DNA of 15,193 bases, filler included, from an uncultured virus (IMG/VR IMGVR_UViG_2049941000_000100) (taxonomy: Duplodnaviria; Heunggongvirae; Uroviricota; Caudoviricetes). It is 4 parts of one record of this genome, joined end to end, with 100 filler letters (N's around TTAATTAATTAA, not from the genome) between each part and the next. Parts side by side here need not be neighbours in the genome. Positions count along the whole stretch, not along the records: positions 10,688 to 13,695 come from IMGVR_UViG_2049941000_000100; 3 more parts are not named here. One strand, written 5' to 3'. Shown here in pieces: positions 1 through 15,193 of this stretch. The position numbers were made by a program, and so were the translations under genes. A model generated the notes under the pieces. It was not told the origin of the DNA. It ran no database searches and saw nothing but the letters and a program-made list of their open reading frames with translations. The first letter of the stretch is position 1. Each line of letters opens with the position of its first letter.

Positions 1-1178
1 GGTGGAACTGTAACCATTGAATACGTAGAATGTTAGCCAAATGAAGTATGGAATAGTTCTACTTAGTATTATATAGAGAATGATAAAGATTTAATTCTTG
101 AAACTATTTCTAATTTCTTTACAGATGTAAATGGTTCTGATTTGGTTATATATGGTAAAGTTTTTGAAGAGGATGGAATAACTTATTTAAACATAGAAAA
201 ATACATTTCTGTTAAAAATGGTTTATCAAGTGATATGTTAGATTTTAATATTAATGCCGGTAATTTTAATGCAGCTATATAGAATACTGGGTTATTATTT
301 AATGCTAACGGTTTAACAGTAACCAACGGTGGTTTTACTATTCAAACTAAAGATGGAGATAATCCTGCCGTTGATGTATTTAAAATAGTACAAAATGAAG
401 TTGGTGGAATCATTAATAATTCCTTATATTTAAATGGAACTGGCAGATTTACTGGAGATATTTATGCAGATAATGGATATTTTAATGGTGAAATAAATTC
501 TAAGATTGGTACTATTGGTGGTTTCGATATAAGTGAACATGCCATTACTTCAAGTGGTCTAGAATTACATTCAAGTTATAATGAATTAAGTTTAATTCCT
601 ACGCAAGATATAGCTAGGTTAGAAAATAAAAAGTATTATACTATTTTCAAAAATAAACAATATGAATATGATGGAAATGTTTTTGAAAAGGATAATATTA
701 ATAAATATATCGCAATTCCATAGTTAACTCCTGAGTATTTTTCTACGCATCGAACTGATTTTTATACATATGATGATGTTAATGATAGATATGAGTCTTG
801 CCCAGAATATATTGAAGTTTAGATTTCTGAATCTACTTTTAATAATAATAAAACTAATTATTATACTAAAGNNNNNNNNNNATAGTTTAGAGTTGCATAG
901 CATAGTGATTGGCCAACAACTCTATATGTCTATACTATGATTTATGACGGAATAATTGAAAATTATTCTTCATATATTGAAGTAGAAAATATAAAAATTG
1001 GTGAGGGGGCAGAAGTAAAGGGTTCTATTAAAATTGGAAATTTAAGTTTACTTAATCCAAATAGCCATAATGGAGATGTTTAGACCTTAAGAAAATATGA
1101 ACCTGTTTCAATAGACGCAGATAAATTTAATGAAGATAAAACTATTTATTATACTTTAGATGAAAATGGTTAGTTTAT
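1..1178 (+). CDS. Internal fragment of a large phage tail fibre/spike protein, TAG-recoded (partial at both ends; 10-N gap at 872-881)
   Basis: Frame +1 has no TAA/TGA over about 390 codons. Only TAG interrupts it (34, 64, 280, 721, 820, 883, 898, 1081, 1171). Translation has spike-like Gly/aromatic strands (LYLNGTGRFTGDIYADNGYFNGEINSKIGTIGGFDI) and Tyr-rich repeats shared with 10777-10832 and 14783-14914. Confidence 0.85.
19..78 (+). repeat. 20-codon protein repeat, also found at 14855-14914
   Basis: EYVEC*PNEVWNSST*YYIE versus EYVRC*ANEPWNSFT*YYIE: 16/20 identical, both TAG codons at equivalent positions. Confidence 0.9.
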
Positions 1179-1858: not shown

Positions 1859-2743
1859 GTTTATATGCACATTAATAAAATAAATAATAAAAAATACATT
1901 GGCTTTACTGGATACTCTTTAGATGAAAGATGGAAAAATGGAAAGGGTTATAGTAAAGATACTCCTTTTGGCTAGGCAATTGAAAAATATGGGTGGGATA
2001 ATTTTGACCATTAGATTTTGTTTTCAAATTTAACTTTAGACGAAGCCGCAAGAAAAGAACAAGATTTAATTGATGAATATCATACTTATTTAGACGACCC
2101 ATTATGTTGGGGTTATAATGCCACGAGAGGAGGAGAAGGACGTAGTAAAGTAAGGCACGAAGAAGTAACTTCTTTATGGGAATAGGGATATTCAACAAAA
2201 CAAATTGGATAGAAATTAGGTGTTGATAGAAATACTGCCGGAAGAATATTATAGAATTATGGAAATTATTCTATAAAAGAAAGCGTAGAAAGAGGATATG
2301 AGCAAAGAATTGTTACAAATTCTCGTCCAGTTTCTCAATACGATTTAAATGGAAATTTTATAGCTACTTATCTTAGTATGAGTGATGCTTATGAAGCAAT
2401 TCATGGTTATAGAGATACAGAGCCAGATGGCACAAGACATTCAAATACTATTGGCTGTGCATGCCGAGAAGGGATAAAGGCATACGGTTTTCAATGGACT
2501 TACAAAGACGCTCCTCCTCCCGGGCCTTATCGTAAAGAAAAAAATTACCATGATGGGAAAGCGGTTGATTAGTATAATCTAGATGGCACTTTTGTAAAGA
2601 CCTATTAGAGTGCATCCGAAGCAGCAAGACAGTTAGGATTAAAAAGTCCTGGTGGGATATCTGATGTTTGTCGAAAACATAAAGGTACTTCAGCAAAATA
2701 TTTATGGAAGTTTCATAACGAAAAAGAGTGGTGGATAAAATGA
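1859..2743 (+). CDS. GIY-YIG homing endonuclease with HTH and two NUMOD1-type DNA-binding repeats, TAG-recoded (first residues lost in the gap)
   Basis: Frame +2: VYMHINKINNKKYIGFT...AIEKYGWDNF...KEQDLI...GYNATRGGEG (GIY-YIG core), GYSTKQIG*KLGVDRNTAGRIL (HTH), PVSQYDLNGNFIATYLS and AVD*YNLDGTFVKTY*SASEAARQLG (NUMOD1-like). TAG at 1973, 2012, 2183, 2210, 2252, 2570, 2606. Ends in TGA overlapping the next ATG (ATGA, 2740-2743). Confidence 0.92.
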
Positions 2744-3477
2744 GTAAGAAATACTTCGTAACAAGTGACGTTCATGGATTTTATAAAGAACTTATGAAGG
2801 CTCTTGAGGGCGCCGGCTACGATAAAAATAATAAAGACCATGTGTTTGTGAGTTGCGGAGACCTTTTTGATAGAGGTCCAGACGCGCGCGAAGTACTCCG
2901 ATTTGTAAATTCTATTCCAGACGAGAGAAAAATTCTTATTAGGGGTAACCATGAGGTTCTTATGAAAGAAATGATATTGAACTTGAGTGATTATCCGCGA
3001 ACTCACGATATTCGTAATGGTACTTGGAATAGCGCAATAGATATTACGAGAGCCGATTACGTAGAAGTTATGCGCGCGATGAGGAAGAATAATGAGTGGT
3101 GGAAGTACTATAATAGTTGCGTTAACTATGCGGAAGTAGGTAATTATATTTTCGTCCATGGGTGGTTGCCTATTAATTCTACTCCGAATGGCCCCGTTGT
3201 AAGAAATGACTGGCGTAAATTGGATGATAAGGATTGGGAAGAGGCTAGTTGGTTGAACGGTATGGCTATGTGGACATATGGCGCGCGTATTAAAGATAAG
3301 ACTATTGTATGCGGTCATTGGAACGTAAGTTGGGGTTGGAAGAATATTCGTAGAGCTTGTAAGGATGGATATAAGGGAGATGCCATTCACGATAGCTTTA
3401 TTGATGAGGGTATTGTCGCACTGGATGCGTGTACGGTAGTTAGTAGGAAAATTAACTGTTATACTTTTGAGGAATAA
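2740..3477 (+). CDS. Calcineurin-like metallophosphoesterase
   Basis: Motifs SDVHG, GDLFDRG, RGNHE, FVHG and CGHW in the canonical order. Start placed at ATG 2740 (ATGA overlap); TAA stop. Confidence 0.93.
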   Translation: MSKKYFVTSDVHGFYKELMKALEGAGYDKNNKDHVFVSCGDLFDRGPDAREVLRFVNSIPDERKILIRGNHEVLMKEMILNLSDYPRTHDIRNGTWNSAIDITRADYVEVMRAMRKNNEWWKYYNSCVNYAEVGNYIFVHGWLPINSTPNGPVVRNDWRKLDDKDWEEASWLNGMAMWTYGARIKDKTIVCGHWNVSWGWKNIRRACKDGYKGDAIHDSFIDEGIVALDACTVVSRKINCYTFEE

Positions 3478-3481
3478 ATAC

Positions 3482-3586
3482 ATGAAACCTATTTTTGAAG
3501 GATTTTTGGATGGGTTACAGATAGCATTTACTATATTCTGTATTCTTTGTCTTATTGGAATTCTATTTAGTTTATTTAGTTGTTAA
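3482..3586 (+). CDS. Small single-helix membrane protein, 34 aa
   Basis: SD GAGG upstream; MKPIFEGFLDGLQIAFTIFCILCLIGILFSLFSC has a hydrophobic C-terminal half; fills the intergenic space tightly. Confidence 0.65.
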   Translation: MKPIFEGFLDGLQIAFTIFCILCLIGILFSLFSC

Positions 3587-3595
3587 GAGGCGCAT

Positions 3596-3739
3596 ATGGA
3601 AATTGAAACTTATAATGTTTATATTAGTAATGACTGTGTAGCTAGAGATATGTCTTTAGATACTGCAATAATTTTGGTTAGAGGACTATTTCATAACTAT
3701 TATAATGAACCGATGCCTTCGATTCGTATTGAACGTTAA
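3596..3739 (+). CDS. Hypothetical protein, 47 aa
   Basis: SD GAGG at 3587-3590; MEIETYNVYISNDCVARDMSLDTAIILVRGLFHNYYNEPMPSIRIER; TAA stop. Confidence 0.7.
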   Translation: MEIETYNVYISNDCVARDMSLDTAIILVRGLFHNYYNEPMPSIRIER

Positions 3740-3793
3740 TGGAGAGAGCCTACTGAAGAAGAAATTAAAGCTTGGGAGTAAAGGAGACTATTT

Positions 3794-4653
3794 ATGTTAA
3801 ATTCTAGTACAGGTGAGCGCGAGCTCGCTTATGTAGTTCTTATTGATGAAATCATGCCCATTGAAGGGTATGACCGTGTAGAACTCGCGCGCGTCGGCGG
3901 TTGGCATGTAATCGTCCAGAAGGGACAGTTCACAGTTGGTGACCCTGCAATTTATTTTGAGGTAGATAGCAAGGTTCCTTCTGACCGCGAGTGCTTTGCT
4001 TTCCTTGCAAAGCGTAAGTATAAGATTAAGACCATTAAGATGTGCGGGGTTATTTCTCAGGGCTTGCTTATGCACGCCGAAGATTTCGGTTGGAAAATTG
4101 AATCTGCACAATTTTGTGGTGGAGTTTGTTATATTGTTGATGACGAGGGCAAACAACATTTTGGTTGTGATGAAACTCGTTTTCTTACCAAGAAGCTCGG
4201 TGTAACCCATATCGAAGACGAGGAAAATAAACCCACCCCAAGAGTAGATAAATATAAGGCTATGGCGCAGCGTCGGCCCAATATTTTTAAACAAAAGTGG
4301 GCGCGTTGGTTTATGAGACGAGAATGGGGTCGTAAGATTATGTATTTCTTCTTTGGACAAAAGAAGAAGAAATCTTCTGAGACTGCATTTCCTACTAAGT
4401 TTCCTTATGTACATAAAAGTGATGAGGAACGAATTGAGAATATGCCATTTCTTCTTAAGGATAAACAACCTTGGATTAAAACTCAGAAGATTGACGGTAC
4501 AAGTAGTACGTATATTCTTGCGCGCGGGCGCTTTGGGAAACTTGAAAAGTATGTGTGTTCAAGAAACGTGCGCCAGTTGACTCCTTCTCAAAAGACTTAT
4601 CATAAAGATATTGAAGAAAATGTATATTGGATGATGATATTTTAGCCGCAGGT
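3794..4653 (+). CDS. ATP-dependent RNA ligase, DRB0094-like family, copy 1 (3' truncated at the gap)
   Basis: SD AAGGAG. N-terminal RELAYVVLIDEIMPIEGYDRVELARVGGWHVIVQKGQF..GD.AIYFEVDS and GVISQGLLM; motif I KIDGTS; motif Ia VCSRN. The ORF-track stop at 4643 is a TAG 8 nt before an N gap, so probably not the true end. Confidence 0.88.
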
Positions 4654-4665
4654 NNNNNNNNNNGG

Positions 4666-4785
4666 GACACTAAAGTGACTCATGATTGTACAGATTGTAG
4701 CTATCAATATTGTGATTGGCTTGTATCAGATGAGTACGCGCGCCATGTGGCAGAACTTATTATTGACGCATTAGAAAAGGAGTAA
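4666..4785 (+). CDS. 3' end of a hypothetical Cys-containing protein
   Basis: DTKVTHDCTDCSYQYCDWLVSDEYARHVAELIIDALEKE then TAA; its last codons contain the SD (AAGGAG) of the next gene. Confidence 0.6.
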   Translation, partial: DTKVTHDCTDCSYQYCDWLVSDEYARHVAELIIDALEKE

Positions 4786-4788
4786 TTT

Positions 4789-5300
4789 ATGTTAAATCCC
4801 AATACAAATGAAAGAGAACTTGCTTATGTAGTTCTTATTGATGAAATTATGCCTATTGAAGGGTATGACCGTGTTGAACTCGCGCGAGTTGGCGGTTGGC
4901 ATGTGATTGTGCAAAAGGGGCAGTTTAAAGTTGGCGACCCAGCAATTTACTTTGAGGTAGACAGTAAGGTTCCTTCTGACCGCGAGTGTTTTGCTTTCCT
5001 TGCAAAGCGCAAGTATAAGATTAAGACCCTTCGTATGTGTGGAGTTATTTCTCAGGGTTTGCTTATGCATCCATCTGATTTTGGTTGGCACGTAAATCTT
5101 CAAGGTGAGATTGATGATGGTGAGATGACTCATACTCCCATAGATGAAACCCGTTTTCTTACTAAGAAGCTCGGTGTAACTCATATTGAGGATGAAGATA
5201 ATAAGCCTGCGCAGAAAGTAGATAAGTATAAGGCTATGGCGCAGCGTCGACCCAATATTTTTAAACAAAAGTGGGCGCGTTGGTTTATGAGACGAGAATG
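4789..5300 (+). CDS. RNA ligase, DRB0094-like family, copy 2 (5' part only; runs into a 997-N gap)
   Basis: Near-identical protein to the first part of 3794-4653, with many synonymous changes and a different central loop. Confidence 0.88.
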
Positions 5301-6304
5301 NNNNNNNNNNNNNNNNNNNNNNNNNNNNNNNNNNNNNNNNNNNNNNNNNNNNNNNNNNNNNNNNNNNNNNNNNNNNNNNNNNNNNNNNNNNNNNNNNNNN
5401 NNNNNNNNNNNNNNNNNNNNNNNNNNNNNNNNNNNNNNNNNNNNNNNNNNNNNNNNNNNNNNNNNNNNNNNNNNNNNNNNNNNNNNNNNNNNNNNNNNNN
5501 NNNNNNNNNNNNNNNNNNNNNNNNNNNNNNNNNNNNNNNNNNNNNNNNNNNNNNNNNNNNNNNNNNNNNNNNNNNNNNNNNNNNNNNNNNNNNNNNNNNN
5601 NNNNNNNNNNNNNNNNNNNNNNNNNNNNNNNNNNNNNNNNNNNNNNNNNNNNNNNNNNNNNNNNNNNNNNNNNNNNNNNNNNNNNNNNNNNNNNNNNNNN
5701 NNNNNNNNNNNNNNNNNNNNNNNNNNNNNNNNNNNNNNNNNNNNNNNNNNNNNNNNNNNNNNNNNNNNNNNNNNNNNNNNNNNNNNNNNNNNNNNNNNNN
5801 NNNNNNNNNNNNNNNNNNNNNNNNNNNNNNNNNNNNNNNNNNNNNNNNNNNNNNNNNNNNNNNNNNNNNNNNNNNNNNNNNNNNNNNNNNNNNNNNNNNN
5901 NNNNNNNNNNNNNNNNNNNNNNNNNNNNNNNNNNNNNNNNNNNNNNNNNNNNNNNNNNNNNNNNNNNNNNNNNNNNNNNNNNNNNNNNNNNNNNNNNNNN
6001 NNNNNNNNNNNNNNNNNNNNNNNNNNNNNNNNNNNNNNNNNNNNNNNNNNNNNNNNNNNNNNNNNNNNNNNNNNNNNNNNNNNNNNNNNNNNNNNNNNNN
6101 NNNNNNNNNNNNNNNNNNNNNNNNNNNNNNNNNNNNNNNNNNNNNNNNNNNNNNNNNNNNNNNNNNNNNNNNNNNNNNNNNNNNNNNNNNNNNNNNNNNN
6201 NNNNNNNNNNNNNNNNNNNNNNNNNNNNNNNNNNNNNNNNNNNNNNNNNNNNNNNNNNNNNNNNNNNNNNNNNNNNNNNNNNNNNNNNNNNNNNNNAATC
6301 TAAT

Positions 6305-6565
6305 ATGAAGAAAATTTTTATTGCAGATGTTCAATGGTGGAATGAATTTGACGAGAAGGATGTAACCGAAACTGTTCTTGTTCAGGCTAATAGCTTCATT
6401 GATGCTATGGAGCAGATTGAAAATCAGTATAAAGATACCCTTGAGGAGATTCATTATTTTACGTGCGTTGGTAACGGCTATGTCGTGCATCTTGGAAGTC
6501 GTGAAGTTAATCGCGAAGAAGTGGATACGGTAGTTAGCTGCATTACTGAAAATAATTGTTTTTAA
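6305..6565 (+). CDS. Hypothetical acidic protein, 86 aa
   Basis: ORF track; protein-like composition, TAA stop, tight packing with the next gene. Confidence 0.8.
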   Translation: MKKIFIADVQWWNEFDEKDVTETVLVQANSFIDAMEQIENQYKDTLEEIHYFTCVGNGYVVHLGSREVNREEVDTVVSCITENNCF

Positions 6566-6576
6566 GGAAAACTAAA

Positions 6577-6828
6577 ATGACTATTTATATTGTTGAAAAT
6601 TATTATGATGAACCTTTTTATAGGGCTCATAAAACTATTGAAAGCGCGCGGCTTGGTCTTTTAGAAGAGTATACAAAGAGCTGTCTGCCGGAAATGATTG
6701 AAATTATTAAAGAAGGTAAAAGTGTTGCCGAAACCGCGGATAATATTAAGACCGACCTTGAGAATATTCTTGCGCATGGTTATGTTGAAGACTTCGCTAT
6801 TATCCATGAATGTGAATTAGAGGAGTAA
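6577..6828 (+). CDS. Hypothetical acidic protein, 83 aa
   Basis: ORF track frame; ATG 6577 preferred because of SD AAGGA at 6564-6568; TAA stop. Confidence 0.8.
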   Translation: MTIYIVENYYDEPFYRAHKTIESARLGLLEEYTKSCLPEMIEIIKEGKSVAETADNIKTDLENILAHGYVEDFAIIHECELEE

Positions 6829-6830
6829 TT

Positions 6831-7292
6831 ATGGTAGCTAAAACCTTTCAGAATCTGCCGCAGGTGGGTGAACCGTTTGAGAGCGGCGGCAAGATGTATG
6901 TAAATGTACAGGGTAAGAACGGTAATGTGCGACGGGTACGTTGGTACGAAGTTGATGAATATATTAAGATGTATCCTGATACACCGCGCGCGGAAATAGA
7001 CCCATATTATAAAACTAAGAAACGTACTCTTTTTGGTGATGGTGAGTATGTATGGATTTTTAAGCCAGTAACGCACGATTTAATGGAACTTTTGGAACAG
7101 AGTTCTCATGTAAGATTCCATACGTATTGGGGTTGGTACGCGCGTACAGATGTCCCTGATGAAATTTTGGATGCGCTTCATGAAAGATTTGTTATGCGCC
7201 AGCTCTATTGGGATGATATCGCGGTTGATGAAGAGACGTTGAAACCGCAAAAAGAAGTAGATAAAATAGTTAAAGGAGTTTTAGGAATCTAA
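6831..7292 (+). CDS. Hypothetical phage protein, 153 aa
   Basis: SD GAGGAG; TAA stop overlaps the next start (TAATG). Confidence 0.85.
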   Translation: MVAKTFQNLPQVGEPFESGGKMYVNVQGKNGNVRRVRWYEVDEYIKMYPDTPRAEIDPYYKTKKRTLFGDGEYVWIFKPVTHDLMELLEQSSHVRFHTYWGWYARTDVPDEILDALHERFVMRQLYWDDIAVDEETLKPQKEVDKIVKGVLGI

Positions 7293-8215
7293 TGTTCTTT
7301 CAGATGCTTGTGGGTATTAGTGGTAGTGGGAAAAGCACCTATGCCCATTATATGAAGAATACATTTTTAGAGCCAGTAGAAATTGTTTCTTCCGACTCTA
7401 TTCGTGAAGAACTTTATGGGGATGAATCTATCCAGGGTAACTCTAATAAAGTCTTCCGTATTATGCTCGCGCGCACTAAGCGGTACTTGAGTGAGGGTAA
7501 GTCGGTTATTTATGATGCTACGAATTTGAGCGATCGACGCCGTATAAATCTTTTAAAAGAGCTTAAAGGATATGATTGTGCGAAACTTTGCCATGTAATT
7601 ATCGTTGACCCGCGTATGTGTAGTGAGAATCAGAAGCTGCGCGAACGTCATGTAAGTGATGAAGTAATTTATCACCAGGTCCAGCAGTTTCGTCCACCAC
7701 ATTTGAGTGAAGGATGGGATGCAATTACTATGGATGTGTATGCACCAGAAGATGAAAAACGCTACCTGGCTCATCTTTATAAAATGACTCTTGAAGTTGA
7801 CCAGCATAACCCTCATCATTCTTTAACTATTGGGAAACATAATTACCAAGCTTATATAAATTCTATTCAATATTTTGATGATAAAGTTTCTGCGGCTGCG
7901 GCATGGCATGATTTCGGGAAACTTATGACTCAGACTTTTGATAGTAATAAGGTCGCGCATTATTATTCCCATGAAAATGTAAGTGCATATTATTATCTAC
8001 TTTTTGAAGCTGAAAGTATTAGTCTTAATACCGTTACGTGTTGCGATAAAGCTAACGATGGTAGGTATGATTATCTTGACGTAGCGTGGTTAATCGCGCA
8101 TCATATGGACTTTTATAAAGATGAAAAATATCTTAAAAAAGTTTATGAACGTGTTGGGTATGAATTGTTTAATAAACTTTATAAGCTTCACGATTGTGAT
8201 GAAAGGGCGCATTAA
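7292..8215 (+). CDS. Polynucleotide-kinase-like P-loop kinase fused to an HD phosphohydrolase
   Basis: Walker A GISGSGKST, SSDSIR and YDATN motifs typical of PNK/AAA_33 kinases. C-terminal HHSLTIGKH, WHDFGK, HYYSHENVSAY, HHM and final D match the HD-domain pattern. Confidence 0.9.
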   Translation: MFFQMLVGISGSGKSTYAHYMKNTFLEPVEIVSSDSIREELYGDESIQGNSNKVFRIMLARTKRYLSEGKSVIYDATNLSDRRRINLLKELKGYDCAKLCHVIIVDPRMCSENQKLRERHVSDEVIYHQVQQFRPPHLSEGWDAITMDVYAPEDEKRYLAHLYKMTLEVDQHNPHHSLTIGKHNYQAYINSIQYFDDKVSAAAAWHDFGKLMTQTFDSNKVAHYYSHENVSAYYYLLFEAESISLNTVTCCDKANDGRYDYLDVAWLIAHHMDFYKDEKYLKKVYERVGYELFNKLYKLHDCDERAH

Positions 8216-8248: not shown

Positions 8249-8937
8249 ATGGAATTAATTTTTAAACCAGAAGACAGACCCTCTTTTACTAATTGCATTA
8301 TGTTTGCGTTCCAGTAGCTTTTGGCTATTATCGCAGCTACTATCGCAGTACCGGCTATTATTGGAAATGGAATGACTGCGTCCGCGGCGCTCTTTGGCGC
8401 GGGCATCGGTACTTTAATCTATCAATTTTTTACTAAGTTCCGTAGTCCCGTATTCTTAGGTTCTTCCTTTGCGTTCTTGGGCTCTATGTTCGCCGCGTTT
8501 GCAGGTGGAGTAAGTATGAGCCTAGGCTTTCTAGGATTAATCCTAGGCGCGGCTTTCGCAGGTTTAGTATACGTGGTTATTGCACTTATAGTTAGAAAGG
8601 TTGGCGTAGAGTGGATTAATAAGCTTATGCCGCCGGTAATTATTGGGCCTATTGTAGCTATTATTGGACTTAGTTTAGCGGGAAATGCAGTAGGCGATAT
8701 GTTAAGTGCGAGCTATTTAGGTTTCTTATGCGCGCTCGTAACTCTATTCGTAGTTATTCTTACTAGTGTATATGGAAGTAAGAACTTAAAGTTGGTGCCA
8801 TTTATTGTTGGTATTGCAGCAGGGTACGCGGTCGCACTTATTATAAGTTTAGCGGGCGCCGCATCTATAATTAATTTAGATAAGTTTAAAGAAATTAATA
8901 GTTTCTTTAGTCTGCCGCAGTTTACATTTTGGATTGC
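8249..8937 (+). CDS. uraA: NCS2-family uracil/xanthine permease, TAG-recoded at codon 23 (3' truncated at the gap)
   Basis: SD AGGAG, ATG 8249: MELIFKPEDRPSFTNCIMFAFQ*LLAIIAATIAVP. UraA/PyrP signatures ALFGAGIGTLIY, PVFLGSSFAF and MPPVIIGPIVAIIGLSLA; multiple transmembrane segments. TAG at 8315. Confidence 0.9.
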
Positions 8938-8947
8938 NNNNNNNNNN

Positions 8948-9256
8948 GGGCCTTCTTTACAAGGGAATCCTCATAAGTTTAAAGAGATTTGTTTCTTTGG
9001 ATATAATTTTATTCGTTCTGATAGCGGCCGTATGAATAGTATTGAAGCCGCGCAAATTTGTCAGAGTGCGGGAATCCCTTGGGTTCCTATTGCGGATAGT
9101 AATTATATTCTTCCTGACGATATGGAAACTCTTAAGCTTGATGCGGATGGACCTTGTATTGTTGGAGAAGGTATGCGCGAAGGATGGGTTTGCAGAAGTT
9201 ATGATGGAAAATTATCTTTTAAGAATGTAAGTAGAGAATATCTTTTAAAGCATTAA
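8948..9256 (+). CDS. C-terminal part of the RNA ligase, displaced by scaffolding
   Basis: GPSLQGN (after motif III), FFGYNF (IIIa), PWVP, REGWV (IV) and SFKNVSREYLLKH (V) are the ligase motifs missing from both 5' copies; unrelated to the permease upstream of the gap. Confidence 0.85.
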   Translation, partial: GPSLQGNPHKFKEICFFGYNFIRSDSGRMNSIEAAQICQSAGIPWVPIADSNYILPDDMETLKLDADGPCIVGEGMREGWVCRSYDGKLSFKNVSREYLLKH

Positions 9257-9683
9257 AATATCTTTGGTGTTAATTCTANNNNNNNNNNNNNNNNNNNNNN
9301 NNNNNNNNNNNNNNNNNNNNNNNNNNNNNNNNNNNNNNNNNNNNNNNNNNNNNNNNNNNNNNNNNNNNNNNNNNNNNNNNNNNNNNNNNNNNNNNNNNNN
9401 NNNNNNNNNNNNNNNNNNNNNNNNNNNNNNNNNNNNNNNNNNNNNNNNNNNNNNNNNNNNNNNNNNNNNNNNNNNNNNNNNNNNNNNNNNNNNNNNNNNN
9501 NNNNNNNNNNNNNNNNNNNNNNNNNNNNNNNNNNNNNNNNNNNNNNNNNNNNNNNNNNNNNNNNNNNNNNNNNNNNNNNNNNNNNNNNNNNNNNNNNNNN
9601 NNNNNNNNNNNNNNNNNNNNNNNNNNNNNNNNNNNNNNNNNNNNNNNNNNNNNNNNNNNNNNNNNNNNNNNNNNNNNNNNNNA

Positions 9684-10491
9684 CGAGTAAGAAAGCATTA
9701 TGAAACCGCAGTAGCTTACTTCGGTAGTGAAAAGTTTGTAGTTGGTGCGTTTCTTGTTGGTTCTCAGAATTATAAATTAGATATTGAAACGTCAGATGTA
9801 GACGTTAAAGTATTTGTTCTTCCTTCTCTTGAATCTATTATCGAGCTTGGCGCGCCGGAAAGTTCTACATGGGTATCTGAGGGCGGCGAGCATGAAGATT
9901 TTAAGGATTTTAGGCTTGTAATTAAGGAATTGGAAAAGGGTTCTCCCAATATGCTGGAGACCCTTTTCACCGATTATTATATTATTAATCCGGATTATAG
10001 TTTTATAATTGCACGGCTTAGAGCATATAGAGAACGTATCGCAAATAATAACCAAAAGGGTATTTTTAATGCGTTTTATGGTATGGCGCAAAGATTTATT
10101 AAGCTTTATAATGAAGGAAAATCAGATATTAAATCGGTAGTAACTCTTTTAAGAANNNNNNNNNNGAGATTTTATTTATAGTTATTTCGTATTAGGAGAA
10201 ACTTATAATAAGTCTCTTGTTCCTTCTAATTTATTTACATTACGAACTTTAAGAACCCAACCAGTTGAACAAGAAAAGTTAAAGGCTTTTGTAGATGAGG
10301 CAACCAAAGATTTAGAAGAGTTTAAATCTTTTAGTGAGAAGAAGGCCGCGCGCGGTAATGACACGTTGGGGAAAGTAGTTTTAAGAGATATATTATATGA
10401 TTTAATGTATACTCATTTAAAGAATGAAATTAAAGATTTTAGGTTTACTAATTTTGATGAGGTTATAAAAAATGAGAGTGTACTTTTGTAA
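9684..10491 (+). CDS. DNA polymerase beta-superfamily nucleotidyltransferase, RlaP/YcgL-like (5' partial; internal 10-N gap)
   Basis: GSQNYKLDIETSDVDVK is the GS...DxD motif, followed by KGSPNMLETLF. After the gap, frame +1 (10168-10491) continues with a helical tail DFIYSYF...NESVLL and TAA. Confidence 0.85.
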
Positions 10492-10587: not shown

Positions 10588-10687
10588 NNNNNNNNNNNNN
10601 NNNNNNNNNNNNNNNNNNNNNNNNNNNNNNNTTAATTAATTAANNNNNNNNNNNNNNNNNNNNNNNNNNNNNNNNNNNNNNNNNNNN
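10588..10687. other. Artificial contig-joining linker
   Basis: N44-TTAATTAATTAA-N44. Confidence 0.97.
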
Positions 10688-10689
10688 TA

Positions 10690-10832
10690 ACTGGTAATGA
10701 AAATACTTGTTATTTTAATATTGAAAATCTTTATTTTGATTTTATAAATAGTTTATTAGAAGAAAAATTAAAAGATTATTTACCAGTTTATATTACTAGT
10801 GAAGAATTTACTGACCATCAAACAGAATATTT
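10690..10832 (+). CDS. Short internal fragment of a tail protein
   Basis: Open frame +1 ending in YLPVYITSEEFTDHQTEY, matching the repeat YEPVNITEEEFEGHETDYF at 14783-14839. Confidence 0.65.
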
Positions 10833-10843
10833 NNNNNNNNNNT

Positions 10844-13695
10844 TTAAATAATGATTTATATTTAGAAATAAATGGTAGTGTTGGATTATATCCTAGATTA
10901 AGTCGTTTAAATAAAGAACGTAATTAGTTAATCGACTCCGCGGCTCCACTTGCTAATTCTATTAGTGATTTAACATCTAAATATTAGGTCGCATAGTTAT
11001 AGTATGATTCTGCTGAAAAAGACTTATAGAGGATGTTAGATCCATAGAGCGGCACTATTTATCAATATACGCATTATATTTATGATGACTTTTATAATTA
11101 GTATGGAAGAAAAGGCACTGCAGTAAATGTTAATGTACCTTCTTATAAGAACGAAATTTATTTTATAAAAGCTAGCGGATTAACTAATATTACTGCAAAT
11201 AGTGGCACTTTAAGTTATTATAAAGTGACTAATGATACAGCGCCGGTTAGTGGAAAAACATATTATTATATTTCAAGTAGTGTTTTTACACAATTAAATT
11301 CTACAAAATTTAGAGAAGGTTGTGTTTATTATGAAAAATTAAATAATACGCAATCTATATATGAAGCTAATACATATATGTAGACAGGAACCACCACAAC
11401 TACACTTACTTTTAGTGGAAGTGGTAGTCCAGAGATTTATATATACGGTGCCGCGCGCAGACGTATGGAAGGTCTTGGTGCGGAAGATTTTATAAATGAT
11501 AATTTTACTATTTCTACTTTAGAAAAAATAACAACCCAGCAAGCTAATAAAGATTCTGCCCAAGCAGATATGGAGAGATTTCAGCCTGATTTAGAATACA
11601 CCTAGGCATAGTATGATAGTATTTAGGATTAGCTTAAAACTATTGCTAATGCTACTGATGAAGTAGAAAAAGAATTTAATGTGAAATATGCTCGTTATGT
11701 TCAAGAAGGTTCTTGGACAGATGACAATTATATGGATGATGATTTATATTATCTTGATTCATTATCTGTGTTATATTAGTCTGCTTATCCGAAAGTTAGT
11801 TATAATTTTAATGTATTAGATTTGAGCTAGCTTGAGGAGTATGAAGGGTATAAATTTGATATAGGCGATAAAACTTATGTTGAAGATGTTGAATTCTTTG
11901 GTTATTAGACTATTGATGGTCTTAGAACTCCAGTAAAAGAATAGGTTGTAGTAACTGAATATGCTAAATATTTAGATGAAAATGATAAAAATCAAATAAA
12001 AATTCAAAATTATAAGTCTCATTTTGAAGATTTATTTCAACGTATTACCGCGGCGACATAGACATTAGAATATCATAGTGGAGAGTATGCCAAAGCTGCA
12101 GGGATAGTAACGCCTACTGGAGAACTTTCATAGAGTGTAGTTCAAAGATCGCTTGCTACTTCAAATTATATAATTACTAATTCTTACGATTAGTCTGTTG
12201 TATGGGATGAAACCGGTATTCATGCTACGAATTTAAATGACCCATTACAAATAACTCGTTTAACAAGTGCCGGTATTTTGGTTTCTGCTGATGGAGGTAA
12301 TAATTGGGGAGTTGCTATTAGTGGTTATGGTATTAATACTAATTACTTAACTGCTGGTTAGATTGATGCTGATAAAATTAATATTATGTCTGGCGCGTAT
12401 CCTACTTTTAAATGGGATAGTTTAGGACTTAGAGCTTATGGCTTCACAGTAGACAATAATGGAAATATTTTAAGCTACGATCCTTCTAAATATGTCGCAC
12501 ATGATAGATTTGGTATATATGGCATTAATGGATTAACAGATGCGAATTTTAAAACTGTTTAGGATGTTAAAGATAACGCTGTATTTGGCTTAACTTGGGA
12601 TGGACTATTTATAAAGTCTATACATAGAGATGGATATGTAAGTATCGATTCTGAAAACGATATTACTTTAAAAGAATATTATCAAGAAAATAATTAGAGA
12701 TTAGAACGCATTCGTGGAAAATTTGGTCTTTTAAATAAAAGAGAAGACAGTTCTTTAGAGTAGGATGTATATGGCCTTGCGCTTTATGCAGAAGATGGTA
12801 CTCCTACAGTAGAAACTAAATCTACTGGAACTTTATGGCTAAAATCTTAGATGGATATTGGTACTTCAGGTTAGAGTAATACAATTTATATTGGAGTGGG
12901 TGAAGAGGATACTTTAGACCCAACTCGTTATAAAGTTATTAAAGTTAATGACCTCGAAGATAATGAAAAATTTATAGTTTATTCTGATGGTACATTAAAA
13001 GCGAGCGGCGCGATAATAGAAGGTAGCGGTACTTTTACTGGTACTATTAATGCTAATGGTGGTCATATTGGTAATATGACGATTACTGGATTAGTTGATA
13101 CTGTTGGTGTTAGAATTAGTCCAAATACTACTGAATTTAAATATAATGGAAGTACTTCTACTCCTGTATAGATGACTTTTACTGCTATTCACGGATTTGA
13201 AAGTGCATAGTATGCATGGTATAAGGGTAGTAATCCTGACTAGATGGGTAACCCAGTCGGTAATAATAGTTCTTATACATACACATTTGATTCTAATGAT
13301 TTTAATAACGGAATAACTTATTTAAAAGTTATTATAACTGCTGGTGGCGGTGTATATAGCGATAGAATTACTTTAAGCTATGTAATTGATGGTTAGGAAG
13401 GACCTCCGGGACCTCCGGGCAGGGATGGTAAAGATGGTTATTCTTATACAATACGTACTTCTGCGCAAGAAATCTTTAAATTTATAAATTCTGATGAATC
13501 TACTTATGAAAATAAACAATATGAATTTTCTTTAAGCGAGTTAAATATTAGCGTTTTTGATATGCAGGAATAGGCTTTTATTCCTTTTGTGGCAGTTAAT
13601 AATTCAAAATTTGCTAGTTTAGATGTTAGAATAAGTAGTTATAATTTTAAAGATATAATTAATGAAAATGATTATTCTAGATATTGGGTGAGCTC
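10844..13695 (+). CDS. Large phage tail-tip/spike protein (prophage endopeptidase-tail-like), TAG-recoded, partial at both ends
   Basis: Frame +2 is open for about 950 codons with about 30 TAG and no TAA/TGA. Contains coiled-coil-like segments, SADGGNNWGVAISGYGINTNYLTAG*IDADKINI (resembling Gram-positive siphophage tail-tip proteins), beta-helix-like GSGTFTGTINANGGHIG and a short collagen stretch. Confidence 0.9.
13391..13438 (+). repeat. Collagen-like Gly-X-Y stretch in the tail protein
   Basis: G*E GPP GPP GRD GKD G; tandem DNA repeat GGACCTCCG x2 at 13400-13417; a TAG occupies an X position. Confidence 0.85.
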
Positions 13696-13795
13696 NNNNN
13701 NNNNNNNNNNNNNNNNNNNNNNNNNNNNNNNNNNNNNNNTTAATTAATTAANNNNNNNNNNNNNNNNNNNNNNNNNNNNNNNNNNNNNNNNNNNN
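13696..13795. other. Artificial contig-joining linker
   Basis: N44-TTAATTAATTAA-N44. Confidence 0.97.
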
Positions 13796-15193
13796 AAAAA
13801 AGTAGGAGATAGAATAGTTGCTACTTTTGATAAATTAGTTGCAAAAGATGGAGAATTTAGTGGTACTATTCATGCAAAAGATGGTGAATTTACTGGTGAA
13901 ATTATCTCTAGTGTAATTAATGCTTCAACTATTAATACTGCTAATTTTGTTACAAAAAAAACTCGTTCTATGGGTGTAGTGNNNNNNNNNNTTGCTTTAT
14001 CTGGTCGAGATATTCGGTATGGAAAATTAATTTCTAATATAGATAATGTTTTAATTATAGAGTTTTATTCTAATGATTATCAGACGATTCTTAGCCAAAC
14101 TGATATTTATACTACTGCAACTATTTTTGGTTATGGAAATTATAATGATGTATTAATCGGAATTAATTCTGATAATAGTTATACTGGTGACATATTACCT
14201 CCTCGTTCATTAGTAATGGAAGAATTTACTAATCTTCAATAGTTAAATAGTGGTACTGGTGATTTAGATTATAATCTTAGGTTATATCTTGGTGATTTAA
14301 CTTATGCTCCGGAAGGTGAAGGATATGGTCTCTACGCTGATAATGTATTCTTAAAAGGCAGTTTAACTACTATTGGGAGTAGTGACCCTAATTCACATAA
14401 TTATGCCGGTATTAATACTTTAAAAGATGTAACTTTTAATTATAATACTTGGAGTACTGGACCAGTTAGTTCTAATAATTATAGCACTGATAAAATTATA
14501 TTTTGGGGCGGCGCGTCGGGCGCGGATAATAGTTCAATTTAGGAAGCTCCATTTATTGTAACAGATAACGGGAATATATTTGCACGTAGTGGTGAATTTA
14601 AAGGCACTGTAATTAGTGATTCTTTAATTACTAATACTATTATTAAAGCACCAATTATTTATGGTAATAATAATGATGGAGAATCTGTTATTAATGAACC
14701 AAGTTTAAAAATTTATGATACTAATGATACCAATGGCGGTATTGGTTTTTATAAAAAAGTTGGTAGTATTGATGAAGATGGTTATGAACCGGTTAATATT
14801 ACTGAAGAAGAGTTTGAAGGTCATGAGACAGATTATTTCAAAAAAATTGATAATGAATATGTAAGATGCTAGGCAAATGAGCCCTGGAATAGTTTTACTT
14901 AGTATTATATTGAAGCACAAAAAGATATAAAGACTTTAGTATTATCTATTAATGGTTTTGTTCATTATTATAATAATAATGGTGATATTGTAGCATATGA
15001 TTTTTTAAGATTTGGTGAATCTAGTCCTGATATATACGTTGATGTAACTAGAGTTATTACTGGTACAACAAATTTGTATTAGAATCATTTAATTGATAAT
15101 AATAGTAGTATCTAGCTTAACGGTTAGCTTGATGGAAATAGTTTTAAAGGAATTAATTTATATACTACAAATTCTAATAATAATTCTAATATA
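13796..15193 (+). CDS. Internal fragment of a phage tail fibre/spike protein, TAG-recoded (10-N gap at 13982-13991)
   Basis: Frame +2 is open throughout except TAG at 14240, 14540, 14870, 14900, 15080, 15113, 15125. Motifs GYGLYADNVFLKG and FWGGA...I*EAPFIVTDNGNIFARSGEFKG resemble phage tail fibres. Confidence 0.87.
13841..13897 (+). repeat. Imperfect 33-nt-period tandem repeat (11-aa beta-helix-like unit)
   Basis: gcaaaagatggagaatttagtggt / gcaaaagatggtgaatttactggt encode AKDGEFSG(TIH) / AKDGEFTG(EII). Confidence 0.85.

Follow-up and report, generated by a model that had tools for sequence, protein, structure and literature searches.

Probable reading of TAG as glutamine in the tail-tip gene of a bovine-gut tailed phage, with gene-by-gene use of the codon

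How can a tailed phage make a very long tail protein from a gene that carries 30 TAG codons? The question is raised by a stretch of 15,193 nucleotides from the uncultured virus IMGVR_UViG_2049941000_000100 (Caudoviricetes), called the window throughout, in which a single forward frame (10844-13693) runs over 950 codons with 30 TAG, 14 CAA and 3 CAG codons, and neither TAA nor TGA. In our assessment (probability about 0.9), the window comes from a bovine-gut tailed phage of about 120 kb that reads TAG as glutamine (Gln; code 15) in a probable Bacillota host that keeps TAG as a stop, with an amber tRNA, the timing of infection and protein yield shaping where TAG is used. A preliminary description of the window had reported a frame of about 950 codons with about 30 TAG, uninterrupted by TAA or TGA, and with more TAG than CAA and CAG codons together; the counts agree on all of this (for the latter, 30 versus 17).

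The G+C content of the frame is 31%, and the remaining five frames over the same piece hold between 47 and 122 TAA and TGA codons apiece. Base shuffling (1000 replicates) always left at least 31 TAA and TGA in the best of the six frames. Shuffles that kept the composition of each codon position (2000 replicates) gave on average 26.8 TAA, 11.1 TGA and 9.5 TAG, with a TAG maximum of 19. By this measure, TAA and TGA are excluded from the frame and TAG is enriched. Under code 11, the longest stop-free run is 98 codons, so the tail gene is broken into pieces of at most that length and the phage would be mis-annotated. The share of the tail pieces occupied by open frames of at least 100 codons is 14% with code 11 and also with code 4, but 89% with code 15; the comparison of tables 11 and 15 suggested in the preliminary description thus speaks for recoding. 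Nine genuine gene ends were recognized in the window, eight TAA and one TGA, as had been stated for the confident ones, and the two code-11 open reading frames that end with TAG both adjoin N gaps.

Reads and contigs were compared between sequencing runs for positions 10688-13695. A 25.8-kb contig from run X1, a candidate for the source run, matches 10843-13685 with zero differences, and the TAGs of 10844-13685 can therefore not be put down to errors of assembly. This contig lacks the final 10 bases (13686-13695). In three further runs, 27-29 of 30 bins are covered, and most of the listed differences affect third codon positions. The runs that contain this region are labelled bovine gut or gut metagenome: one sample gave four rows with at least 95% of the region's words, and other studies gave four rows with 34-49%.

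By similarity and gene order, the frame encodes part of a siphophage tail-tip protein. The product of 10844-13685 is 78% identical to residues 774-1675 of the protein P0002, and the N-terminal ~780 residues of the tail-tip protein lie outside the window. Pfam Prophage_tail was found in three of five scanned homologs, and the homologous genes sit after the tape measure and Dit genes. Against the PDB, the tail alignment gave weak matches only (tip-attachment protein J, best E-value 0.002), and the window tail protein had no match in a GenBank phage set.

The meaning of TAG was read from 91 related tail loci at the DNA level (80 viral and 11 from genome bins). A multiple alignment of 63 non-redundant rows comprised 44 standard-code rows, which served as the profile, 17 TAG-recoded rows and 2 code-4 rows. 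TAG codons of the recoded rows fell on Gln columns in 56 of 82 cases at 60% conservation and in 35 of 43 at 80%; the corresponding values for CAA were 88/121 and 61/70. Summed over the recoded rows, the log-odds favored Gln (+253.8) over the next residue, glutamate (Glu, -147.1). As a control, TGA of the code-4 rows stood on tryptophan (Trp) columns in 11 of 12 cases. For the window alone, 22 scorable TAG sites gave +14.3 for Gln, -3.7 for Thr and -4.0 for Glu. The four closest loci have 110 positions aligned to a window TAG, among them 34 with TAG, 19 with CAA or CAG and 7 with Glu codons, and TAG occupies 11 of the 60 positions aligned to a window CAA or CAG. Among 150 database homologs, the log-odds at the window TAGs were +19.1 for Gln and +3.2 for Glu, values that are partly circular, as some entries may be code-15 translations. 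P0002, which has Gln at 24 of 29 such sites, may be one of these and was not counted as independent.

Strain differences (40 listed out of 121) point in the same direction. All three CAG codons of the frame become TAG in other runs (one to three per site) through C-to-T differences at 11537, 11582 and 13565. In run X6, a CAA is converted to TAG by two changes, at 12248 and 12250. A further change, at 11563, turns a CAA into CAG. None of the 40 listed differences produces TAA. Genome-wide, TAG paired best with Gln or TAG in all eight recoded relatives. On the column log-odds and the genome-wide pairing, we rejected Glu, Trp, Tyr, Leu, Ser and Lys as the meaning of TAG, and avoidance of TAG at conserved Gln sites, a sign of ambiguous decoding, was not significant (p 0.12-0.20). 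Thus the conserved-column, closest-locus, database-homolog and strain tests, including the tabulation of homolog residues that had been proposed, all support Gln, and we regard this meaning of TAG as shown. For two crAss-like phages, the same assignment has been demonstrated by proteomics (PMC9523058).

The family to which the tail gene belongs is a natural experiment, as standard, TAG-recoded and TGA-recoded members are intermixed and CAG and TAG interchange at the strain level. A first pass assigned code 11 to 68 of the 91 loci, code 15 to 22 and code 4 to one; L084 was later moved from 11 to 4. A change to code 15 raises the coding cover of all eight TAG-recoded relatives, from 0.39-0.63 to 0.81-0.92. 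A quick tail-gene tree, built from 63 of 92 rows after merging at 85% identity, groups the window with four loci (L007, L008, L087 and L009), all of them TAG-recoded (SH-aLRT, the approximate likelihood-ratio support, 100). In this tree L081, cut at 1900 residues, is misplaced, and L097 is a short piece of unsure code. The near-complete relatives measure 108-140 kb. In 19 records, the family terminase shares 57-68% identity with its counterpart in G003, a near-complete TAG-recoded relative; in one bin the figure is 39%. This 39% match (G004:C73:2758-4401) has 13 TAG, lies in the same bin as L087 and probably belongs to a second TAG-recoded phage. In seven records (G008, G012, G014, G018, G020, G021, G023) the terminase matches come in two to four pieces, a pattern like that of introns or inteins. 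G012 and G013 (L055, L084) are the members that read TGA as Trp; in G012, TGA stands opposite Trp in 55 of 66 cases, and no opal tRNA was found in it.

TAG is used gene by gene. In the window tail pieces it makes up 46 of 72 Gln codons, versus one of 52 in 12 pooled early frames (1 TAG, 21 CAA, 30 CAG; Fisher p 4e-14). For the relatives, we tallied the gene families that occur in four or more of the eight recoded records. TAG shares of Gln codons were high in the tail tip (268/525), terminase (55/147) and portal (37/103), and nil or nearly so in the polymerase III alpha-like (0/348), gyrase-like (0/128 and 1/163) and primase-like (0/81) genes and the ligase (0/75). Apart from the ligase, the names of these replication genes are ones that we assume from reading the sequences. 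TAG was equally scarce in the putative capsid (0/84), a capsid-neighbor gene (0/26) and the tail tube (2/54). The earlier suggestion that the structural module is invisible under code 11 therefore holds for the tail gene and fails for these three, which are nearly TAG-free in the relatives; likewise, recoding is pronounced in tail genes without being limited to them, as a homing endonuclease has seven TAG and a permease has one opposite Gln. In G003 (C1:9974-11638), the holin and a putative endolysin have TAG at 0/6 and 1/6 Gln codons, and in G001 at 1 and 4 codons; the TAG-poor lysis genes of G003 differ from the lysis-gene TAG bias of other recoded phages.

The putative capsid match lacks an internal stop in 23 of 23 records, including 11 full-length genes from TAG-recoded records and 2 from TGA-recoded ones. 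Its identity rests on gene position and on 23-25% matches to annotated capsids; its PHROG is of unknown function, and it had no match among PDB sequences. We found no earlier description of a capsid gene avoiding the recoded codon, although the subscription literature was thinly covered and one may be in print. This avoidance, seen in every record checked, bears on whether recoding is a timing switch or tolerated drift.

We infer two constraints, timing that bars TAG from early genes and yield that bars it from abundant ones. The phage would supply its own tRNA with a CUA anticodon, charged by host enzymes, as its relatives suggest. Genes needed before this amber tRNA builds up, for replication and RNA repair, would avoid TAG. 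Homing endonucleases would be free to gain it, as would late genes whose products are made in few copies (tail tip, portal, terminase), chiefly through mutation of CAG to TAG in A+T-rich DNA. Virion proteins made in great abundance would also avoid it, probably owing to read-through of TAG that is less efficient than decoding of a normal codon. As an outcome, tail proteins would be completed only late in infection.

Several observations weigh against this explanation. In the 150 database homologs, only 3 of the 21 TAG sites with good coverage have Gln as the commonest residue, compared with 7 of 12 CAA/CAG sites. In pairwise comparison with the standard-code loci alone the margin is thin (Gln -0.3, Glu -3.3), and the raw counts are 174 Glu and 162 Gln of 1111. 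Three window TAGs stand in conserved columns, one each for Gln, Glu and Thr. The window contains no tRNA, and we infer a suppressor of this phage from relatives. TAG-free capsid and tail-tube genes imply that TAG cannot gate all late genes. The assembly is stitched and includes two N-terminal halves of an RNA ligase, so that the early genes, for which no physical link to the tail contig was found, may be those of a sister strain. Finally, the host assignment rests on bin labels, which are weak evidence, and one of these names an archaeon.

A competing account concerns why TAG is distributed as it is, not what it means, and is compatible with reading TAG as Gln. In this account TAG spread mostly neutrally, an amber tRNA and A+T-biased CAG-to-TAG change placing it wherever it was tolerated, with late timing as a by-product. 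We consider it a serious contender, with a little less than an even chance. It is favored by the collapse of CAG in recoded tail genes (3/47 Gln codons here versus 24% in standard-code relatives), by a negative correlation, over 52 gene families, between TAG share and codon bias taken as a proxy for expression (Spearman -0.51, p 1e-4), by code states that switch at least four times on strongly supported branches of the 63-row tail-gene tree, and by capsid and tail-tube genes that avoid TAG. Yet replication genes of low codon bias (0.13-0.25) have almost no TAG, so timing constrains TAG at least negatively, and in a published model lysis genes are biased to the recoded codon (bioRxiv 10.1101/2021.08.26.457843).

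Decoding of TAG as Gln requires a tRNA, and one with anticodon CUA was detected in all five near-complete TAG-recoded relatives (G003, G005, G006, G010, G011), of which G003 belongs to the window's own subclade. No suppressor tRNA was detected in three partial TAG-recoded records or in the TGA-recoded G012. Neither a phage release factor (PF00472; 19 virus records) nor a Glu/Gln-tRNA synthetase (PF00749; 12 records) was found, which argues for charging by host enzymes. In five incomplete host-labelled bins, gatB was present in all and glutaminyl-tRNA synthetase (GlnRS) over the cut-off in none, which points to charging by the indirect Glu-to-Gln route. In the amber tRNAs of G003, G005, G006 and G010, U1 faces C72 or U72, a mispair, and position 73 is G. 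Bacterial GatCAB is reported to recognize a U1-A72 pair (PMC2811023, PMC1635274), with U1 alone as the main determinant (PMC1635274). The amber tRNA of G010 (C1:95354-95443) is 90 nucleotides long with a long variable arm, and TAG in this genome still aligns with Gln. Insertion of Ser by this tRNA was rejected: of 71 G010 TAGs, 25 stand opposite Gln and 21 opposite TAG, and Ser is outside the top seven. The TAG-recoded G005 also has an ARAGORN-predicted tRNA with a UUA (ochre) anticodon (L112 12177-12251), which may be degenerate.

A more speculative extension, which we regard as rather unlikely, gives TAG two roles, that of a clock and that of a dosage dial. The U1-mispaired tRNA would be charged by glutamyl-tRNA synthetase (GluRS) and then converted by GatCAB, an undescribed step, and read-through would be high but incomplete. 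By calculation, 46 TAG codons would let about 9% of chains be completed at 95% read-through per codon and 63% at 99%. On these figures, an unrecognized factor that restrains release factor 1 would be needed, and incomplete read-through would explain why proteins required in hundreds of copies keep zero TAG and those required in few copies have 30-84.

The same charging data raise the question of whether TAG is read as Glu, or as a mixture of Glu and Gln, through loading by a non-discriminating GluRS and incomplete amidation. The gatB and GlnRS findings would allow it, the mispaired U1 of four amber tRNAs does not fit the U1-A72 pair read by GatCAB, and Glu is frequent opposite the window TAGs in distant homologs. 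We nevertheless consider this reading very improbable. In conserved columns TAG behaves like CAA (56 Gln to 6 Glu versus 88 to 9), and GAA/GAG show the reverse (21 to 283); conserved Gln columns show no significant shortage of TAG (45/127 versus 293/702, p 0.20), strains interchange CAG and TAG, and the reported dominance of U1 alone (PMC1635274) lessens the weight of the mispairing.

The host is probably a member of the Bacillota, as 10 of 11 genome bins with a tail homolog are so labelled and one is labelled archaeon. The host could in principle read TAG as Gln itself, with the phage merely following. We consider this very improbable too: the near absence of TAG from early genes would be needless in such a host, relatives bring their own amber tRNA, and the family also includes phages with the standard code and with TGA recoding, scattered among the others. 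The further view that the TAGs are true stops in a pseudogene or in an artefact of assembly, as a gapped and out-of-order assembly might suggest, is refuted by codon counts (decay cannot give 30 TAG with zero TAA and TGA), by the run comparison (an identical independent contig and mostly third-position differences in three other runs) and by 22 of 91 related loci with the same pattern and shared TAG positions.

TAG recoding itself is established, and the present finding adds one rumen lineage. TAG read as Gln, with late-gene bias and suppressor tRNAs, has been described for crAss-like and Lak phages and six further clades (bioRxiv 10.1101/2021.08.26.457843), and is predicted for 666 human-gut viral operational taxonomic units (PMC11210395). 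As a likely guess, the phage belongs to the Agate clade of the former study, to which we liken it by description. Shared traits are large genomes (108-140 kb in the relatives versus ~127 kb for an Agate lineage and about 127-154 kb for the clade), the cattle gut, codes 11, 15 and 4 intermixed among near relatives, a suppressor tRNA, recoded structural genes next to standard-code replication genes, and a recoded homing endonuclease in the early region. The mixture of codes does not single out Agate, as four clades show it. Release factor 2 is reported in two TAG-recoded Agate phages (bioRxiv 10.1101/2021.08.26.457843) but was found in none of the 19 virus records here, and the text consulted on Agate makes no mention of capsid or tail-tube genes free of TAG.

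phAss-1, of the proposed Phassvirus (PMC10607447; GenBank OQ749652), is similar as a ~130-kb siphophage with TAG as Gln, a predicted Bacillota host, amber tRNAs, no synthetase and a polymerase III alpha, and its terminase and capsid are detectably related to those of G003. It differs in being distant, as terminases within the window's family share 57-68% identity, and in its human-gut origin, and the window tail protein was unmatched in the GenBank phage set that includes it. Membership in Phassvirus, defined by more than 80% nucleotide identity and synteny with phAss-1 (PMC10607447), was rejected, with terminase and capsid of G003 only 34% and 37% identical and the tail unmatched. crAss-like and Lak phages have the same code, late-gene bias and suppressor tRNAs, but differ by Bacteroidota hosts and unrelated gene sets, and a crAss tail-tube family is reported to prefer TAG whereas the tail tube of the window's family avoids it (bioRxiv 10.1101/2021.08.26.457843). 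No crAss or Lak record was among the best 30 of 131 matches to the G003 terminase. Its best GenBank matches were Geobacillus virus E3 (41%), then Alicyclobacillus, Enterococcus and Bacillus phages, and phAss-1 (34%). Membership in Crassvirales or Lak was rejected, as the best terminase and capsid matches are Bacillota phages and Lak genomes reach at least 540 kb. Accordingly, the earlier assignment to code-15 gut phages stands, but its crAss-like and Lak examples do not apply, the G003 terminase lying nearest to those of large Bacillota phages.

The window consists of four linker-joined contigs with pieces out of order and further N gaps (Table 1). Contigs of runs X1, X5 and X6 join 13685 over nine letters to 10688; the frame 10690-10830 is stop-free, and its continuity over the joint was read by eye.

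Table 1. Features of the window, with positions counted along its full length.
Feature	Position	Strand	Evidence or composition
Two tail-gene pieces, 5 and 4 TAG, flanking a 10-N gap	1..1178	+	protein matches to G001, G005
Artificial 100-base contig linkers	1179..1278, 10588-10687, 13696-13795	.	44 N, 12 A/T bases (stops in every frame), 44 N
GIY-YIG/NUMOD1 homing endonuclease, start lost in a gap	1865..2743	+	Pfam NUMOD1 E 7e-14, GIY-YIG E 0.003; phrog_314 E 9e-22
Early/metabolic region including small ORFs (open reading frames)	2728..8215	+	genes without TAG
Metallophosphoesterase, without TAG	2728-3477	+	Pfam/PHROG matches
Two RNA-ligase N-terminal halves, TAG-free	3794-4653, 4789-5300	+	Pfam/PHROG matches
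Polynucleotide-kinase-like gene, without TAG	7292-8215	+	Pfam/PHROG matches
Xanthine/uracil permease, N-terminal part	8249..8937	+	Pfam PF00860 E 8e-29
RNA-ligase C-terminal piece, without TAG	8948-9256	+	phrog_968, phrog_388 (given for region 8948..10155)
Nucleotidyltransferase fragment, TAG-free	9684-10155	+	phrog_968, phrog_388 (given for region 8948..10155)
Misplaced tail-gene piece, true position after 13685	10688..10832	+	contigs of 3/4 runs
Large tail-tip (Tal/central-fibre-type) gene, middle part, TAG read as Gln	10844..13685	+	PHROG 6211 minor tail protein, E 1.6e-11
Two final tail-gene pieces, 0 and 7 TAG, open at window end	13796..15193	+	G001 1262-amino-acid protein 784-837, 885-1217

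Judged by their protein matches, the three tail frames are probably parts of one very long tail-tip gene. Outside the main frame, the tail pieces match the second tail protein of G001 (1262 amino acids) in order, at residues 517-545, 544-717, 688-754, 784-837 and 885-1217. The pieces in 1-1178 correspond to the second and third of these segments, and to residues 1633-1870 of a 2476-amino-acid protein of G005. The preliminary description had given 9 TAG for 1-1178 and 7 for 13796-15193, and these numbers are right (in the latter, 0 in 13796-13981 and 7 in 13994-15193); neither is a single uninterrupted frame, each being in two pieces. The tail-tip gene is divided into two genes in G001, G002 and G003, whereas in G005, and probably in the window, it is fused and encodes a single protein. 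The split junction (window ~13390-13460; L001 7040-16113) lies at short Gly/Asp/Pro-rich repeats that are present in both split genes, which suggests that fused and split forms arose by recombination between these repeats.

Six genes of the middle contig have homologs in the near-complete G003, where the early-gene homologs cluster at 109.6-117.0 kb; because of this clustering, the middle contig would come from the same kind of phage as the tail contig, a statement made at the level of kind and not of one genome. The homing endonuclease, with 7 TAG, 5 CAA and 1 CAG (7/13), is visible under code 15 only. A conserved gene within the replication arm of G003 (C1:24388-25446), whose product has a hydrophobic stretch at the N-terminus and a GIY-YIG domain at the C-terminus, likewise belongs to a TAG-rich family (62/142 Gln codons, 6 genomes).

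The RNA ligase is a single gene in G003 and G005, and the window has two different N-terminal halves and one C-terminal piece; two strains may have been combined in the assembly, or the gene may be duplicated. A TAG at 4643 is only 8 bases away from a gap, at which the RNA-ligase alignment ends. The permease, whose one TAG is at codon 24 opposite a Gln of the G003 gene, is a real phage gene, as it is 75% identical to its G003 counterpart and adjoins the kinase gene.

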